Of a DNA stretch of 64,000 nucleotides, positions 56,929-64,000 are shown one piece after another. Where the stretch lies: NCBI GenBank assembly GCA_963813745.1, contig CAWEZW010000006.1, positions 39,707 to 103,706 on the forward strand, in the 5' to 3' direction. Source of the DNA: an uncultured Solirubrobacterales bacterium. GTDB taxonomy: Bacteria > Actinomycetota > Thermoleophilia > Solirubrobacterales > Solirubrobacteraceae. The translations under genes were made by a program, and so were the position numbers. Numbering within the stretch: the stretch's first letter is position 1; the number at the start of each line of letters is the position of its first letter. The notes beneath the pieces were generated by a model. It saw nothing but the letters and a program-made list of their open reading frames with translations. It ran no database searches and was not told where the DNA came from.

Positions 56929-58581
56929 ATGAGCACCCCTGGCGATCAGGACGCCGTCGCGTCACCGGTCCTGAGCGCCTCCGAGCTCGCGGAAGTCGCC
57001 GAGTTCGGCGTTGAGCAGCCGGTGGTGGACGGACAGCTGCTGTTCGAGGCCGGAGAGGCCTCCTACGACCTGTTCGTCGTGCTCGAGGGCGAGGTCGAGA
57101 TCGTGCGGGCCGACGGCGAAGGCATCGATAACGAGCCGATCTTTGTATTTGGGCCGGGCAACTTCGTCGGCGAGCTGAACCTCCTGACCGGCCAGCGCCG
57201 CTTCCTGACCGCTCGTGTCAGCAGGGCGGGTCGGATGCTGATGATTCCACAGCCCGAGTTCCGACGGCTGATGAGCCTGCGCCCGGCGCTCGCCGGGATC
57301 ATCTTCAGTGCCCTACTCGCGCGCCGTGAGCTGCTACGCACCGGCGAGGGCGCCCAGGCGATCCGGATCATCGGCTCACGGTACTCGCCCGAAGCGATGA
57401 GCCTGCGCGCGTTCGCGGAACACTCGCGCCTCCCCCACACCTGGATCGATGTCGAGGACGCCGAGGACATCGACGCCCTGCTGAGCACGATGGACCTGCG
57501 CCCGCAGGACACGCCTGTGGTGATCACCCCCACCGAGATTCTGCGCCGCGCGACGCCGGCTGTCTTCGCCGAGCACCTCGGCCTGACATTCCAGCCGATA
57601 CCGGGCTACATCTTCGATCTCGTCGTCGTCGGCAGCGGTCCCGCCGGCCTGGCAGCGTCGGTGTACGGAGCGTCGGAGGGCCTACACACGGTCTCACTGG
57701 ACGCAATGGCGATCGGCGGGCAGGCCGGTTCCAGCTCGCGCATCGAGAACTACACCGGCTTCCCCAACGGCATCTCCGGCGGAGACCTAACCGCCCGATC
57801 TGCCGTGCAGGCGATGCGACTCGGGGCGCGGCTGAACGCCCCCTGCGAGGTCGTGGGCCTGCGGGTCGAGGCGGGATTCCACGTGGTCATCCTCAAGGAT
57901 GGAAGCGAGATTCCGACCCGAGCGGTGATCGTCGCCTCCGGAGCCAGCTACCGACGGTTGGACGTACAGGACCTCGACCGCTTCGAGGGTGCCGGCGTCT
58001 ACTACGCGGCAACCGACCTCGAGGCGAGGGTCTGTGACGGCAGGCCGGTGCTCGTCGTCGGAGGCGGCAACTCGGCGGGACAGGCCGCGATCCATCTGGG
58101 TGAACACAACTGCAGCGTCACGATCGCGATCCGCCGCGACGACCTCACCCACAGCATGTCCCAGTACCTGATCGAGCGAATCGAGTCCGACCCGAAGATC
58201 CAGCTGCTCACCGACGTCGAAGTCCAGACACTCGCGGGTGATGGTCATCTGGACGAGGTAACGCTGCGGCGCATCGCGACCGGCCAGCAGCAGACGATTC
58301 CCTGTTCGGGGCTGTTCTGCTTCATCGGCGCGCAGCCCGCGACGGGCTGGCTGTGTGACGGCGTGCTGCTCGACCAGGACGGGTTCGTGCTCACCGATCG
58401 TCATCTGTCGGGGCCGATCGTCGCGGGAACATCGAGCCCGCTGCCGTTTGAGACCTCCGTGCCCGGAGTGTTCGCCGCCGGCGACGTCCGCAACGGCTCG
58501 ATGAAGCGGGTCGCCGCCGCGGTGGGCGAGGGCTCGAGCGCCGTGCGCTCGGTGCACGAGCGCCTCGCCACCCAGACTTGA
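56929..58581 (+). CDS. cNMP-binding domain + thioredoxin reductase-like FAD oxidoreductase
   Basis: cNMP domain (LFEAGE, FVGELN), GSGPAG, IENYTGF, GGGNSAG, FAAGDVR, AVGEG. Confidence 0.92.
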   Translation: MSTPGDQDAVASPVLSASELAEVAEFGVEQPVVDGQLLFEAGEASYDLFVVLEGEVEIVRADGEGIDNEPIFVFGPGNFVGELNLLTGQRRFLTARVSRAGRMLMIPQPEFRRLMSLRPALAGIIFSALLARRELLRTGEGAQAIRIIGSRYSPEAMSLRAFAEHSRLPHTWIDVEDAEDIDALLSTMDLRPQDTPVVITPTEILRRATPAVFAEHLGLTFQPIPGYIFDLVVVGSGPAGLAASVYGASEGLHTVSLDAMAIGGQAGSSSRIENYTGFPNGISGGDLTARSAVQAMRLGARLNAPCEVVGLRVEAGFHVVILKDGSEIPTRAVIVASGASYRRLDVQDLDRFEGAGVYYAATDLEARVCDGRPVLVVGGGNSAGQAAIHLGEHNCSVTIAIRRDDLTHSMSQYLIERIESDPKIQLLTDVEVQTLAGDGHLDEVTLRRIATGQQQTIPCSGLFCFIGAQPATGWLCDGVLLDQDGFVLTDRHLSGPIVAGTSSPLPFETSVPGVFAAGDVRNGSMKRVAAAVGEGSSAVRSVHERLATQT

Positions 58582-58719: not shown

Positions 58720-60318
58720 GTGACGACAATGAGCAACATCTCTGCCTCGCAAACCGCACCCTCGGTCACACGGGTCGCTCACCTGATCAACGGAGCGCTG
58801 CGAGACCTGGGCGATGGATGGATGGAGGGCGAGATTCGCTCCATCACGCTGCATAGCTCAGGCCACGTCTACCTGACTCTGGCGGACGAGAGCTCCAACC
58901 TCGACGCCTGCATCTGGAAGGGCCGCGTCGGTGGGTGTAAGCCACTCCCCGAGCGAGGTGACCTCGTTCAGGCGCACTACGAGCGAATCGACTTCTACGC
59001 GCCTCGTGGAAGCACGAAGCTCATTATCGACAAGATCAAGCACACCGGCGAGGGAGAGTTGCTACGTCGGCGTGCTGAGACGTTGGCTCGGCTTCAGGCT
59101 GACGGGCTCTGTGACCTCGACAGGCGCAAGCCGTTGAGAGCATTCCCACGTCGTGTCGGAGTTGCAGCCGCGCAAGGTTCCGATGCCATGGTGGATGTCC
59201 TCCGACGTCTACGCGAACGCTTTCCGGCCCAGGACATTGTGATCTGCCCTGTCTTGGTGCAAGGGGTGGAAGCGGTGGGCTCAGTAATCGATGGGCTTGC
59301 TCGCCTGCAGGCTATGCGCGATGTCGACGTCATCATCCTTGCGCGCGGCGGCGGGTCGGTGGCTGACCTCATCGCCTTCGACGACGAGCGCCTGTGCCGC
59401 GCGGTCTTCGCGTGTGAGGTCCCCGTGATAACGAGCATCGGACACACAAAGGACCGTCCCAACTGCGACCACGTCGCGGCCGCCTGCGCGTCCGTGCCGG
59501 CAATGGCCGCCGAGCGGGCTATCCGCCATTCAGCCGACGAGTTGCTCGGCGAGCTCGCCCGCCACTCCGACGCTCTCGCGTCTGTTCGCGTCAGCATGCG
59601 ACGCCGCAGAGACCGGGTCGAGGAGCTGTGGCAGCAGGCACGCCCCAACCAGCGCATCGTCGAGCTCGCGACCGCGATAGGCCGGACCGGCGAGCTACTG
59701 GCCTCACGCACCGAGAGTGCATTCCGCAAGCTCGAGAGGTCGTTTTCAGATGCCTCGCATGTTCTGGGCAATATCGCGCTGAGATTCCCACGCCCCGACT
59801 CCCTCGACAAGCCGCGTGGAGCGCTGCACCAGGCGGCCGTCGCCTTCGTTGCCGGTCACCGCGAAGCAATCGACGCCTCTGAGAACTCCCTCAATGCCGC
59901 CACACGGCGCATCCCGCGACCGGTTGCACTCGATGCCTTTGCCGCCCACGTCCACAACACAGGCACGCGCATCCGCGAGAAGCGTCGTGACTATGGCCGC
60001 GCGCTTCAGCGACTTTCCACAGACGCCAATTACGATCTCACCCGGCGTCTTGCCGCCGAGTGCGGGGTCATCAGCTCCGAGGCCGGCCATCTGCGCCCAG
60101 CCGCCGACCGCGTGCTCGCGCGAGCACATGAGCGAGTCTCGAACCTCGGAGCGCTCGCCGACGCGAAGGACTTCCGACGCCGCGGCTGGGTGCTCGCTTC
60201 AGAGCAGGGCCGAGCAATTCAGACGGCCACCGATCTACGAGTCGGAACCACCCTTGAATTACGGTTTGCGGATGGAGAGGCTGCCGCAACCATAGATGAG
60301 ATCAAGCCTCGAGAGTAA
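58720..60318 (+). CDS. xseA: Exodeoxyribonuclease VII large subunit (long, divergent)
   Basis: OB fold (WMEGEI...SGHVYLTL), ARGGGS, IGHTKD, C-terminal RRGW...LRFADG. Confidence 0.92.
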   Translation: MTTMSNISASQTAPSVTRVAHLINGALRDLGDGWMEGEIRSITLHSSGHVYLTLADESSNLDACIWKGRVGGCKPLPERGDLVQAHYERIDFYAPRGSTKLIIDKIKHTGEGELLRRRAETLARLQADGLCDLDRRKPLRAFPRRVGVAAAQGSDAMVDVLRRLRERFPAQDIVICPVLVQGVEAVGSVIDGLARLQAMRDVDVIILARGGGSVADLIAFDDERLCRAVFACEVPVITSIGHTKDRPNCDHVAAACASVPAMAAERAIRHSADELLGELARHSDALASVRVSMRRRRDRVEELWQQARPNQRIVELATAIGRTGELLASRTESAFRKLERSFSDASHVLGNIALRFPRPDSLDKPRGALHQAAVAFVAGHREAIDASENSLNAATRRIPRPVALDAFAAHVHNTGTRIREKRRDYGRALQRLSTDANYDLTRRLAAECGVISSEAGHLRPAADRVLARAHERVSNLGALADAKDFRRRGWVLASEQGRAIQTATDLRVGTTLELRFADGEAAATIDEIKPRE

Positions 60319-60328
60319 GGGGAGACAA

Positions 60329-60695
60329 ATGGCCGAGAGCAGCACCACCGAGCACGAGAACATCACCTTCGAGACCGGCTACGACGAGCTGAAGGACATC
60401 GTGGCCCGCCTGAGCGCCGAGGATGTCTCCGTACACGAGATGTTCGAGGGCTTCCGTCGTGGCAAGGGACTGGAGAAGGCTCTTCGAAAGCTACCTCACC
60501 GACCGCGAGGGAGAGCTCGCCGAGATCGAGCAGGGCAAGAACCTGCCCGAGTTCGAGATCGTCGCGTCCCCCGCGGACATCCAGAGCACAACCGAGCGCG
60601 ACGCGGTTCCCCTCGATGAGACGAATTTAGACTTCAAGCCCGCTCCGGCAACGCCGACCCGTGCCAGCTCGGGAGACGACGACATACCGTTCTAG
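60329..60695 (+). CDS. xseB: Exodeoxyribonuclease VII small subunit with SSB-like C-terminal tail (one extra base near 60488)
   Basis: AAGGGGAG RBS; TFETGYDELKDIVARL...FRRGKGL, continuing as SYLTDREGELAEIE...SSGDDDIPF*. Confidence 0.85.
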
Positions 60696-60754
60696 CCAGA
60701 GGGATCGGGCACCCACGCCCGTGGCACCCGCTGATGCGTTACTCACTGACATTG

Positions 60755-60776
60755 GGTCCGGCGCGATAGCTATCTT
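60755..60776 (+). promoter_or_regulatory. GGTCCG-N10-TATCTT promoter before the SWIM-SNF2 gene
   Basis: Same geometry as the other repair-gene promoters; GTG 6 nt downstream. Confidence 0.55.
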
Positions 60777-60782
60777 GCGTTC

Positions 60783-63700
60783 GTGCCGATTGCAGTCGAG
60801 CGAGCTGAGCGATGTCGAGCTGTCCGAGGTTGAGGCGGCCGTCGGAACCCGGACGTTTCAGCGGGGGCGCGGCTACGCGCGCGGCAACCGGGTGCTCGCG
60901 ATCGAGTGGGACCCGGATACCGAGACGTTGACCGGCGCGGTCGTCGGCCAGGGGGCGGTCTACGCACGGCCGCGTTCTTCGCCGCCGATGGTGACGGCGC
61001 GCTGGGGTTCGACGATGGCGAGTGCACCTGCCCGGTCGGGTACAACTGCAAGCACGTCGCGGCGATCGTGATCGCCGCGAGCCGATGGACGTGGCGCGAT
61101 CGCTGCGAGGCGGGCGGCGCCCGCCTCGCGTTGCGACGGCGGCGAAGCCACGGACGTCCGCCGTCGCGACGGCGGCGGCAGCCGCGGTCGTGGGAGGAGC
61201 CGCTGCGCGCGCTGATCGACGCGCCGGCGGCGCACGTGCCACGGGCAACCCGCTGGCGATCGAGCTGGCGCTGCACGCGAGCGGCCTCGCGGGCGGAGGC
61301 CCGCTGCGGCTGATGGCGCGGTTGATGCGAGCCGGGCGCGCGCGGCGGCTGGGTCAACGGCTCCCTTGCGTGGAGCGGGCTGGAGCTCGTGGCACGTCAA
61401 GGAGCGGCGAGTACCGCCCCGATCACCTGGCGCTGGCCCGCGAGCTGTACGCCGTGCACCGCGCGCGCGAAGGACGGGCGGCCTACTACTACGGCTACGG
61501 CGCCGACAAGACGCTCGATCTCAGCGACTGCGACAGCGCGCAGCTGTGGTCGCTGTTGGACGAGGCGGCCCGCCTCGGAGTCGAAGCTCGTCCACGCGCT
61601 TCCCGGACTCGGCGAGGTGCGCGCGCCATCAGCGGGGCGAGCTGCTGATCGACGTCACGCGACAGGGCGATCAGGGGTCGCTCGTGCGCGCGGTCCTCCA
61701 GGTCGACGGCGAGGACAGCGAGACGGCCTGGAGCCGCTGCTGTTCCTCGGTTCCAGCGGACACGGCGTCGTGTGCGCCGAGCGCGGCGACGACGGCTCCA
61801 GCCACGAACCCGAGAGCCGGCGGCTGCGGCTCGTGCGCCTCGTCAGGCCGGCGCCGGCGCCGCTGCAGCGGATGGTGCTCGACGGCGAGCGGCTGAGGAT
61901 CCCGGCGGGCGAGCTCGAGCGCTTCGCCGAGGAGCTCTGCCCCGCGCTGCGCAACGTCGCCACGGTGGTCTCGTCGGACGGCTCCTTCACGCCGCCGGAG
62001 ATCTCGGCGCCGACGCTCGTGCTGCGCGCAAGCTACGGCGCCGACCATGCCGTCGACGTCGGATGGGAGTGGGCCTACCAGGTCGGCGCCGCCACGCGGC
62101 ACGCAGCGCTCGCCAGCAACGGGGCCGGCCCCGGGTTCCGCGACCTCGAGGCCGAGCGCGCGATCCTCGCGGCCGCCGATGCTCACCGGGACGGACCTCG
62201 AGCGCCTCGGCCTGCTCGACGGCGCCGGGCGGCCCGCCGATGGGCACGCGGTGTCGCTGACGGGCATCGACAGCATGCGCCTCACGACGGAGGTGCTGCC
62301 GCGGCTGGCGGAGCGGTCAGACGTGGCCGTGGAGGTCGTCGGAGAGCCCGCGGACTACCGCGACGTCGGCGACTCGCTCGACGATCGGCGTCTCCACCGC
62401 CGAGATCGCGGGAGAGCGCGACTGGTTCGACCTGGGCGTGACGATCAGCGTCGATGGCCGCGAGCTGCCGTTCGCCGAGGTGTTCGTCGGCGCTCGCGAG
62501 CGGCGAGTCGCACATGCTGCTCGACGACGGCGCTCACTTCTCGCTGCTGGAGTCCGGCCTGCAGTCGCTGCGGCGGCTGATCGAGGAGGCCAGGGCGCTG
62601 TCGGACTCGCCGTCGGCGCCGCTGCGGATCAGCCGCTACCAGGCCGGGCTCTGGGCCGAGCTCGCCGCGCTCGGCGTCGTAACCGAGCAGGCGCAGGCGT
62701 GGCAGCGCCAGGTCGGCGCGCTGCTCGAGCTCGACGCGATCGCCGAGCACGATCCGCCGGCAGCGCTGGCTGGCGCGGCTGCGCCCCTACCAGCGCGATG
62801 GGTTCGGCTGGCTGGCGTCGCTGTGGGAGCTCGAGCTCGGCGGGATCCTCGCCGACGACATGGGGCTCGGCAAGACGCTGCAGGCGCTCGCGCTGATCTG
62901 CCACGCCCGCGAGCGCGACCCGGGCGTCGGCCCGTTCCTGGTGGTCGCTCCGACGAGCGTCGTGTCCAACTGGGTCGGAGAGGCGGCGCGCTTCGCGCCC
63001 GGGCTCAGGGTCGACGCGGTCACCGACACGCTGGCGCGGTCCGGACGCACGATCGAGGAGGTCGCCGCCGCCGACGTCGTGGTCACGACGTACACGCTGT
63101 TCCGGCTCGACGCCGACGCCTACCGCACGGTGGCCTGGGCGGGGCTGATCCTCGACGAGGCGCAGTACGTCAAGAACCACCAGGCGAAGACCTACCGCTG
63201 CGTCCGCGAGCTGGCCGCGCCGTTCAAGCTGGCGATCACCGGCACGCCGATGGAGAACAACCTGATGGAGCTGTGGTCGCTGCTGTCGATCACCGCGCCC
63301 GGGCTGTTCCCCGACCCGAAGCGGTTCGCCGAGCAGTACGCGCGACCGATCGAGCGCGAGCGGCGATGCCGAGCAGCTCGCGCGCCTGCGGCGCCGGATC
63401 AAGCCGCTGCGTCAAGCGCCGCACGAAGGAGCTGGTGGCCGCGGATCTCCCCGCAAAGCAGGAGCAGACCCTCGAGGTCGACCTGCATCCGCGCCACCGC
63501 AAGCTCTACGACACGCATCTGCAGCGCGAGCGTCAGAAGGTCCTCGGGCTGATCGACGACTTCGACCGCAACCGCTTCACGATCCTGCGCTCGATCACGC
63601 TGCTGCGCCAGCTCAGCCTGCATCCGGGCCTCGTCGACGACGACCACGACACCGTGCCGTGCGCCAAGCTCGGCGCGCTCGTCGAGCAGCTGGGCGACGT

Positions 63701-64000
63701 CGTCGGCGGCGGCCACCGGGCGCTCGTCTTCAGCCAGTTCACGGGATTCCTGGCCAAGGTCCGCGAGCGCCTCGACAGCGAGGGCATCGGCTACTGCTAC
63801 CTCGACGGCCGCACGCGCCGGCGCGATCGCGTGCTCGAGCGCTTCAAGGACGGCGCGGACCCGGTGTTCCTGATCAGCCTCAAGGCGGGCGGGTTCGGCC
63901 TGAACCTCACCGAGGCCGACTACTGCTTCCTGCTCGACCCGTGGTGGAACCCCGCCACCGAGGCCCAGGCGATCGACCGCACCCACCGCATCGGCCAGAC
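60783..64000 (+). CDS. SWIM zinc finger + SNF2-family helicase (many frameshifts; runs off the window)
   Basis: CTCPVGYNCKH (SWIM), DDMGLGKT, DEAQ, TGTPMEN, FSQF, SLKAGGFGLNL, DPWWNP...DRTHRIGQ. Confidence 0.93.

Follow-up and report, generated by a model that had tools for sequence, protein, structure and literature searches.

The closest described relative of the locus reported here, which comes from a soil bacterium, is exonuclease VII (ExoVII) of Escherichia coli, an XseA4-XseB24 complex (8TXR; PMC10835039, PMC3439923) for which PMC10835039 reports six XseB per XseA and an XseA arm whose length changes in XseB-sized steps. Four XseA residues (D155, R205, H238 and D241) are described as essential in the E. 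coli enzyme, and mutating D250 or T255 lowers activity merely to 60-80% (PMC3439923). In Bacillus subtilis, SSB and XseA co-purify, and XseA forms foci at replication forks only when the SSB tail is present (PMC3000357), which argues that fork targeting matters for ExoVII. The tip of the E. coli SSB tail, which ends in MDFDDDIPF, is reported to draw in 17 or more partners and to be able to stimulate RecQ, RadD and RecO (PMC10018359); the SSB tip is regarded as a hub organising bacterial genome maintenance, and as a drug target. SSB-type tips are also described on phage and prophage proteins, namely DUF669 proteins (PMC13687109) and Bas52_0087, the trigger of DRT10 (10.64898/2026.04.29.721553). 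Such tips on phage OB-fold proteins are already in print, and what is new here is an SSB-type tip on XseB, the small subunit of ExoVII: as the first-pass annotation of this DNA had supposed, we found no description of a tailed XseB in the literature searched, a search that left most subscription journals, and the PMC10835039 supplement surveying ~340 XseA, outside its scope. Our data show the tailed XseB to be real, conserved and recurrent.

The window, by which we mean the whole stretch of 64,000 nucleotides that was analysed, carries adjacent xseA and xseB genes with the following features:

58720..60318, + strand: xseA, ExoVII large subunit, 532 aa from GTG (TIGR00237, PF02601, PF13742, 8TXR alignment, Foldseek)
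60317..60324, + strand: putative purine-rich ribosome-binding site, read from the sequence and overlapping the xseA stop codon
60329-60695, + strand: xseB, ATG at 60329, 10 bases after xseA; the product read through the frame break is 121 aa
60329..60530, + strand: helical hairpin core of XseB, PF02609 match, with predicted helices at residues 14-28 and 35-67 (AlphaFold2 of the relative P0002)
60487..60489, + strand: run of three A, one of them surplus; the surplus base is absent from 4/4 contig sets and from L181-L185
60540..60566, + strand: residues 71-79, which follow helix 2 and are conserved in tailed and tail-less members alike (alignment A1)
60567..60674, + strand: Ala/Pro/Ser-rich linker of variable length, predicted disordered (pLDDT 48-59)
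60600-60635, + strand: degenerate copy of the host-SSB linker motif, with a two-residue insertion
60675..60695, + strand: SSB-type acidic tip DDDIPF and stop codon, the same as the host SSB end and the E. coli tip (PMC10018359)

The XseA of the window scores 295.9 bits against TIGR00237 (cut-off 180), matches both PF02601 and PF13742, and has 8TXR as its top Foldseek matches (E 2.7e-31); an alternative ATG start at 58729 is equally likely as the GTG. Its parts are those of the E. coli enzyme in the same order (OB fold, catalytic domain, long helical arm and C-terminal beta domain), and its D159, R209, H242 and D245 align with E. coli D155, R205, H238 and D241 in the 8TXR alignment, so that a cognate large subunit with all four essential residues stands beside the tailed XseB. 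The equivalents of E. coli D250 and T255, on the other hand, are A and V in the window, the XseA arm is ~80 residues longer, and the window's clade is patchy and partly mobile. XseB scores 32 bits on Exonuc_VII_S (PF02609, cut-off 24); against TIGR01280 (cut-off 35) the intact P0002, 95% identical, reaches 35.7 and the window copy, with an X at the break, 34.9. The AlphaFold2 model of P0002 shows the two-helix hairpin familiar from E. coli XseB (pLDDT above 85), followed by a tail of pLDDT 48-59 without secondary structure, values that suggest disorder and are no proof of it. The product is 121 aa long with its linker and tip, whereas E. coli XseB has 80 aa. Residues 71-79 possibly form a strand docking against the catalytic domain of XseA, by analogy with residues 56-65 of E. 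coli XseB (PMC10835039). PF02609 was the sole match of the window XseB, with no PF00436 OB fold; the tailed product is a member of the ExoVII family and no SSB.

Compared with the tail of a bacterial SSB (PMC10018359), the window protein likewise ends in a free C-terminal DDDIPF behind a flexible linker, and many of its relatives also carry the upstream linker motif of the host SSB; the tip, however, sits on a helical nuclease subunit and not on an OB-fold SSB. With the DUF669 proteins and Bas52_0087, as described in the two reports cited above, it has in common the DDDIPF tip and the proposed plugging of a protein other than the host SSB into host DNA metabolism, yet those are OB-fold, SSB-like phage proteins while the carrier here is a cellular nuclease subunit lacking an OB fold. 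As in B. subtilis, ExoVII would be linked to the SSB hub at forks, but there it is a client of the SSB tail (PMC3000357), whereas the ExoVII of the window carries the tail itself.

The xseB gene is broken by a single base. Frame 60329 encodes the first XseB helix, and frame 60330 the second helix, the linker and the DDDIPF end with its stop codon, so that, as had been pointed out before, the tail shares its frame with helix 2, and removal of one A yields the ~121 aa originally proposed. One base at 60487 of the window is missing from the Logan contigs of 4/4 runs, a comparison that speaks to the earlier call for a check of 60480-60495 and that uses assembled contigs of near-identical strains (two of them differ by 11 letters in ~795) instead of raw reads of the source sample. 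The extra A is also lacking in three independent assemblies of 98% protein identity (L181-L183), which encode an intact 121-aa protein ending in DDDIPF. A second surplus base, at 60798, is likewise absent from the Logan contigs of the same 4 runs, and priA and the second xseAB of the same genome are split across frames by further single-base breaks. Since near-identical strains and L181-L183 lack the base, and the assembly has other breaks of this kind, the extra A at 60487-60489 is very likely an assembly error. A programmed frameshift or a pseudogene is unlikely, given those near-identical strains without the extra base, and a separate ORF for the tail (from an ATG at 60423) can be dismissed because the intact relatives have one ORF.

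The end of the window XseB, acidic residues followed by a hydrophobic residue, P and F at the free C terminus, is identical to that of the host SSB (G000:C2:182912-183367), in agreement with the initial description of the tip as SSB-type. Among 22,231 ORFs that reach 60 aa and close with a stop codon, only 2 end in [DE][DE][ILV]PF, where 0.016 are expected, and these two, the SSB and the window XseB, are the only such ends in the source genome (2.29 Mb, 68% complete). The match of the XseB tip to the SSB tip is not chance. The D-D-[IVL]-P-F ends sought among homologues are common: of the 120 best-ranked among 365 homologues, 75 have an xxIPF terminus and 53 a DDIPF one, and 53 of 150 representatives at 50% identity among the matches listed have an acidic-x-PF end, counts that are no measure of prevalence as both lists were ranked with a tailed query and favour tailed proteins. 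Across 105 tails the terminal acidic-x-P-F is kept behind disordered A/P/S/G-rich linkers of 15-104 aa (median 36), and it persists on partners of XseA proteins only 36-65% identical while linker sequence and length change. In 29 distinct 21-nt gene ends, chosen for ending in PF, proline uses all 4 and phenylalanine both synonymous codons and all three stops are present, and this free codon use implies conservation at the protein level. Drifted tips are common (EIPF, DLPF, DFPF, DVPF), whereas the host SSB itself stays at or close to DDIPF, and strict co-evolution of the XseB tip with the host SSB is not seen. A few XseB with long tails have acidic LF-type ends instead of PF and possibly carry other docking tags (P0249, P0254, P0266, P0178, P0189), and in P0133, a 464-aa protein that is either a fusion or a miscalled gene, the last 114 residues are a tailed XseB.

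The likeness to SSB was at first noted for the tip, which holds, but it is broader than that, as the tail often copies ~27 residues of the SSB end. SSBs of Solirubrobacterales (29 examined, all ending in IPF) share, ~15 residues upstream of the tip, another motif in the linker, D-[VIL]-P-x-D-x-x-D-F (23 distinct sequences; source loci G000:C2:182912-183367, L077-L105 and L162-L178). Scored with a profile of this motif against 1,000 shuffles each, 32 of the 105 XseB linkers reach p<0.01 and 41 reach p<0.05, and 56 contain DF, where shuffled sets average 10 and never exceed 19, figures that overstate the case to the extent that related sequences are not independent. The degenerate copy in the window gives p=0.28 in the ungapped test, and the relatives P0006 and P0007 give p=0.001; in a gapped alignment the window tail and the host SSB end are identical in 16 of 29 columns. 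The likeness to the ssb 3' end is visible at both the protein and the DNA level, and the XseB tail is likely to have originated as a captured 3' end of ssb, whose tip would then have been held by selection as its linker drifted. The source genome (a 2.3-Mb partial genome) holds six SSB-family genes, of which one ends in DDDIPF. It is flanked by ORFs that we take, by eye, to resemble rpsF, rplI and dnaB, and because of these neighbours it is likely the housekeeping copy. None of the other five (G000:C5:7283, C6:269860, C8:45671, C9:204772 and C9:219249) has a DDIPF end; three end in AAAEG and one in an acidic LIF.

The phylogenetic distribution of the tail points to repeated gain and loss, a recurrence that had been overlooked when a single tailed XseB, itself real, was described. 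The homologues are named as Solirubrobacterales or Solirubrobacteraceae. The window's ExoVII clade is patchy: 11 genomes among 201 of the order have it, spread over four families; outside the order, one genome among the others searched in the class holds a clade II member, which is tail-less (L234). A quick XseA tree (72 rows, with fragments and duplicates dropped, the tail-less 427-aa group thinned from ~45 to 14, and midpoint rooting) has two deep clades, with the window in clade II. Within clade II tails are found on nearly all branches and are absent from the 427-aa group and L114, and with the midpoint root the tail looks ancestral there and lost twice. Clade I is largely tail-less (27 of 32 loci read); the five tailed loci, all of genus g34 and ending in DVPF or EVPF, form a five-genome group nested within it. 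The tree requires 4 changes of tail state, at least 3 of them on starred branches, with branch support taken from this quick tree and the placement of the long branches L108 and L112 unsure. In addition, canonical-type XseB named Sutterellaceae have DDDIPF or DVPF ends. SSB-type XseB tips likely have at least three origins. The g34 loci (L132, L133, L137, L140, L152), an apparent independent gain, have an XseA ~25 residues longer than most tail-less clade I members. On deep clade II branches (L110, L111, L113-L116) XseA has a shifted catalytic motif, GHT[DE]N...CN, and uncertain activity, and it is the only xseA found in those of these that were checked.

The window gene, real as first annotated, turns out to belong to a second, patchily distributed xseAB of its genome, which had been missed; the source genome also holds a clade I pair. 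A genus tally found an xseA match in 118 of 121 genomes, with two matches in 6 (the unpublished G240 included), and the clade II xseA is the only one found in 8 of 10 clade II genomes checked, the other two also holding a clade I pair. Clade II neighbours vary (imuB-dnaE2, DUF488-DuOB/dprA-comM, addBA, integrase/relaxase elements, SIR2-HerA), and a stable chromosomal block near imuB-dnaE2 contains tailed as well as tail-less pairs, including 11 tailed copies. The likeness of L184 and L185 to the window extends from 50 bases before xseA to the xseB stop. We infer that the xseAB of the window's clade is a two-gene cassette which moves and often replaces the resident enzyme.

The first description was confined to the tail and overlooked a second motif, frequent on the tail-less relatives. 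Tail-less clade II XseB usually have an N-terminal extension with QAIMF or QATMF (L022-L076; for example L046 upstream of 10001). This segment fits the clamp-motif consensus Q-[LIVA]-x-[LM]-[FL] quoted in 10.1101/2025.08.20.671105 and is a candidate beta-clamp-binding motif; the same source reports that a similar peptide, QALRF, did not bind the clamp by NMR. The pattern, mostly as QAIMF, occurs in 35 of 49 tail-less genome loci versus 0 of 26 tailed ones, in 15/45 versus 0/75 proteins and in 18/27 versus 0/18 metagenome loci, sets that overlap and represent essentially one lineage and no statistical series. These counts show the SSB tip and the putative clamp-type motif to alternate near-exclusively in clade II. 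We found no such motif in the XseA or XseB of the window, none inside 127 tails by the pattern used, and none conserved across the XseA sequences compared (73 of clade II, 31 of clade I), where single matches are scattered. Since 14 of the 49 tail-less genome loci have no strict clamp-type motif (9 of them not even a loose one), neither tag is essential. The tail and the candidate clamp motif in close relatives amount to a natural swap.

The number of tails per complex may be estimated from the XseA arm. The distance from the catalytic GH to the arm end falls into length classes of 136, 155-159, 199, 221 and 241-244 residues, with steps near 21-22, and is 243 in the window XseA compared with 164 in E. 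coli (counted on the 8TXR alignment). As the shorter E. coli arm carries six XseB, the arm of the window would fit ~10, which predicts ~10 tails per XseA and ~20 per XseA2 half-complex, where SSB has 4 per tetramer; the original proposal that each ExoVII displays many SSB tips is likely on this estimate. In a first sample all 17 tailed pairs had an XseA of at least 463 aa and all 43 tail-less ones an XseA of at most 437 aa. A tie between tail and XseA length was nevertheless set aside, as it shrinks to 3 independent pairs (p=0.25) and tailed XseA of 450-452 aa are exceptions.

From these sequence comparisons we give an even chance to the reading that the XseB tail is a multivalent docking tag for the pockets of SSB partners. 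XseB would coat the XseA arm as in E. coli and display its tails outward, the tips would occupy the pockets with which RecJ, RecO, PriA and similar replication and repair proteins receive the SSB tip, and nuclease and partners would thereby meet at forks and at sites of DNA damage. The avidity of many tails could offset weak single contacts, and the bound partner may also be stimulated, in the way that RecO and RadD respond to free SSB-tip peptide. In the source genome recJ and recO pass cut-offs and priA is present in pieces. The clamp-motif alternative likewise points to fork targeting as its use for ExoVII. Against the docking reading, most ExoVII of the order are tail-less and the swap to the clamp-type motif is a matter of one lineage; many tips have drifted, and the match to the host is no strict co-evolution. 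SSB is also abundant in the cell and would compete for the same pockets.

A broader reading, which we put forward tentatively and consider on balance unlikely, is that the XseB-coated arm is a scaffold for replisome address tags, be it the SSB tip or the clamp motif swapped for it, and forms a second, nuclease-bearing hub on which SSB partners would gather, with ~20-40 tips per complex. If so, the long XseA arm, for which the structure paper (PMC10835039) settles on no purpose, would gain a function. A cellular nuclease with many SSB tips, gained repeatedly and independently, would amount to another hub, one that either rivals SSB for its partners' pockets or feeds them. The work bears on two ExoVII questions: what directs the enzyme to forks and to topoisomerase-DNA adducts, and why a long arm coated with XseB is required.

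Alternatively, the tail might be a built-in ligand of ExoVII itself, bound to an SSB-tip site or to the OB-fold DNA face of XseA, and so turn the enzyme on without SSB or damp it until ssDNA displaces the tail, a reading which we regard as unlikely. Precedents exist for such contacts, in that where B. subtilis XseA localises is governed by the SSB tail, and SSB co-purifies with it (PMC3000357, where this is co-purification and not direct binding), the SSB tip is reported to bind OB folds in competition with ssDNA (10.1101/797431), and ExoVII is described as autoinhibited with an occluded OB face (PMC10835039). A ligand acting in cis need not match the tip or linker of the host SSB, however, and many tails do; moreover the tail-less relatives keep a nearly unchanged XseA head and have gained the clamp-type motif instead. 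When the tail (residues 88-121) was modelled in complex with the head and the C-terminal domain of XseA, the prediction scored 0.00, which counts neither for nor against such a contact.

It is less probable still that the tail binds SSB itself, tip to free OB fold and linker to linker, and in this way pulls ExoVII into assemblies or condensates of SSB or assists in displacing SSB from ssDNA. The copied linker motif would suit such an SSB-SSB contact, but the window's own copy is degenerate; and the GFP-SSB tip fusion reported to enrich in SSB droplets under PEG crowding partitioned only with PEG, with nothing added by the linker (10.1101/797431).

A role in defence, in which the tail would lure or sense SSB-tip-binding proteins of phages or plasmids, is improbable for the window. 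Phage proteins do carry SSB-type tips (PMC13687109, 10.64898/2026.04.29.721553), tailed copies adjoin integrases, relaxases and an MmeI-type restriction gene, and four lie directly behind SIR2 and HerA, with Q replacing the essential D241 in their XseA. This SIR2-HerA linkage, however, is confined to one subclade to which the window does not belong, no defence gene stands beside the window pair, neither subunit matches PADLOC models, and clade II neighbours vary instead of forming a fixed defence linkage. A phage origin of the tailed XseB was likewise rejected, as no relative was found in the viral contigs of IMG/VR (96 pattern matches, 0 confirmed). Together with these results, the 8 of 10 genomes in which the pair is the sole xseA found and the 11 tailed copies in the stable block leave little support for the earlier idea that the tail catches phage proteins. 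Least probable of all is a harmless relic of fusion with the ssb 3' end, for while the likeness to ssb is clear and the tail was lost at least twice and is absent from most ExoVII, the tip is kept as the linker varies across XseA proteins 36-65% identical, and similar tips occur in unrelated XseB lineages whose linkers lack such an SSB motif by eye.

Several neighbourhoods deserve mention. The run of SIR2, HerA, xseA and tailed xseB (L032:4899-10318, L043:4882-10306, L044:4906-10309 and L209:432-5826; L043 and L207 are the same region) mostly adjoins integrase, recombinase or IS genes, and may represent a variant of SIR2-HerA defence in which ExoVII is altered. At L009, L010, L013, L015 and L074, DUF488 and dual-OB genes lie upstream of tailed xseAB, with dprA downstream in 4/5 and comM where the locus reaches, and at L110:1360-9629 a tailed xseAB lies directly downstream of addB-addA on the same strand. 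In the window itself, xseA is preceded by a gene for a thioredoxin-reductase-like protein with an N-terminal cyclic-nucleotide-binding domain (56929-58581), and xseB is followed by a SWIM zinc finger and SNF2 helicase gene (60735-64000) that lies in several frames, likely through assembly errors.
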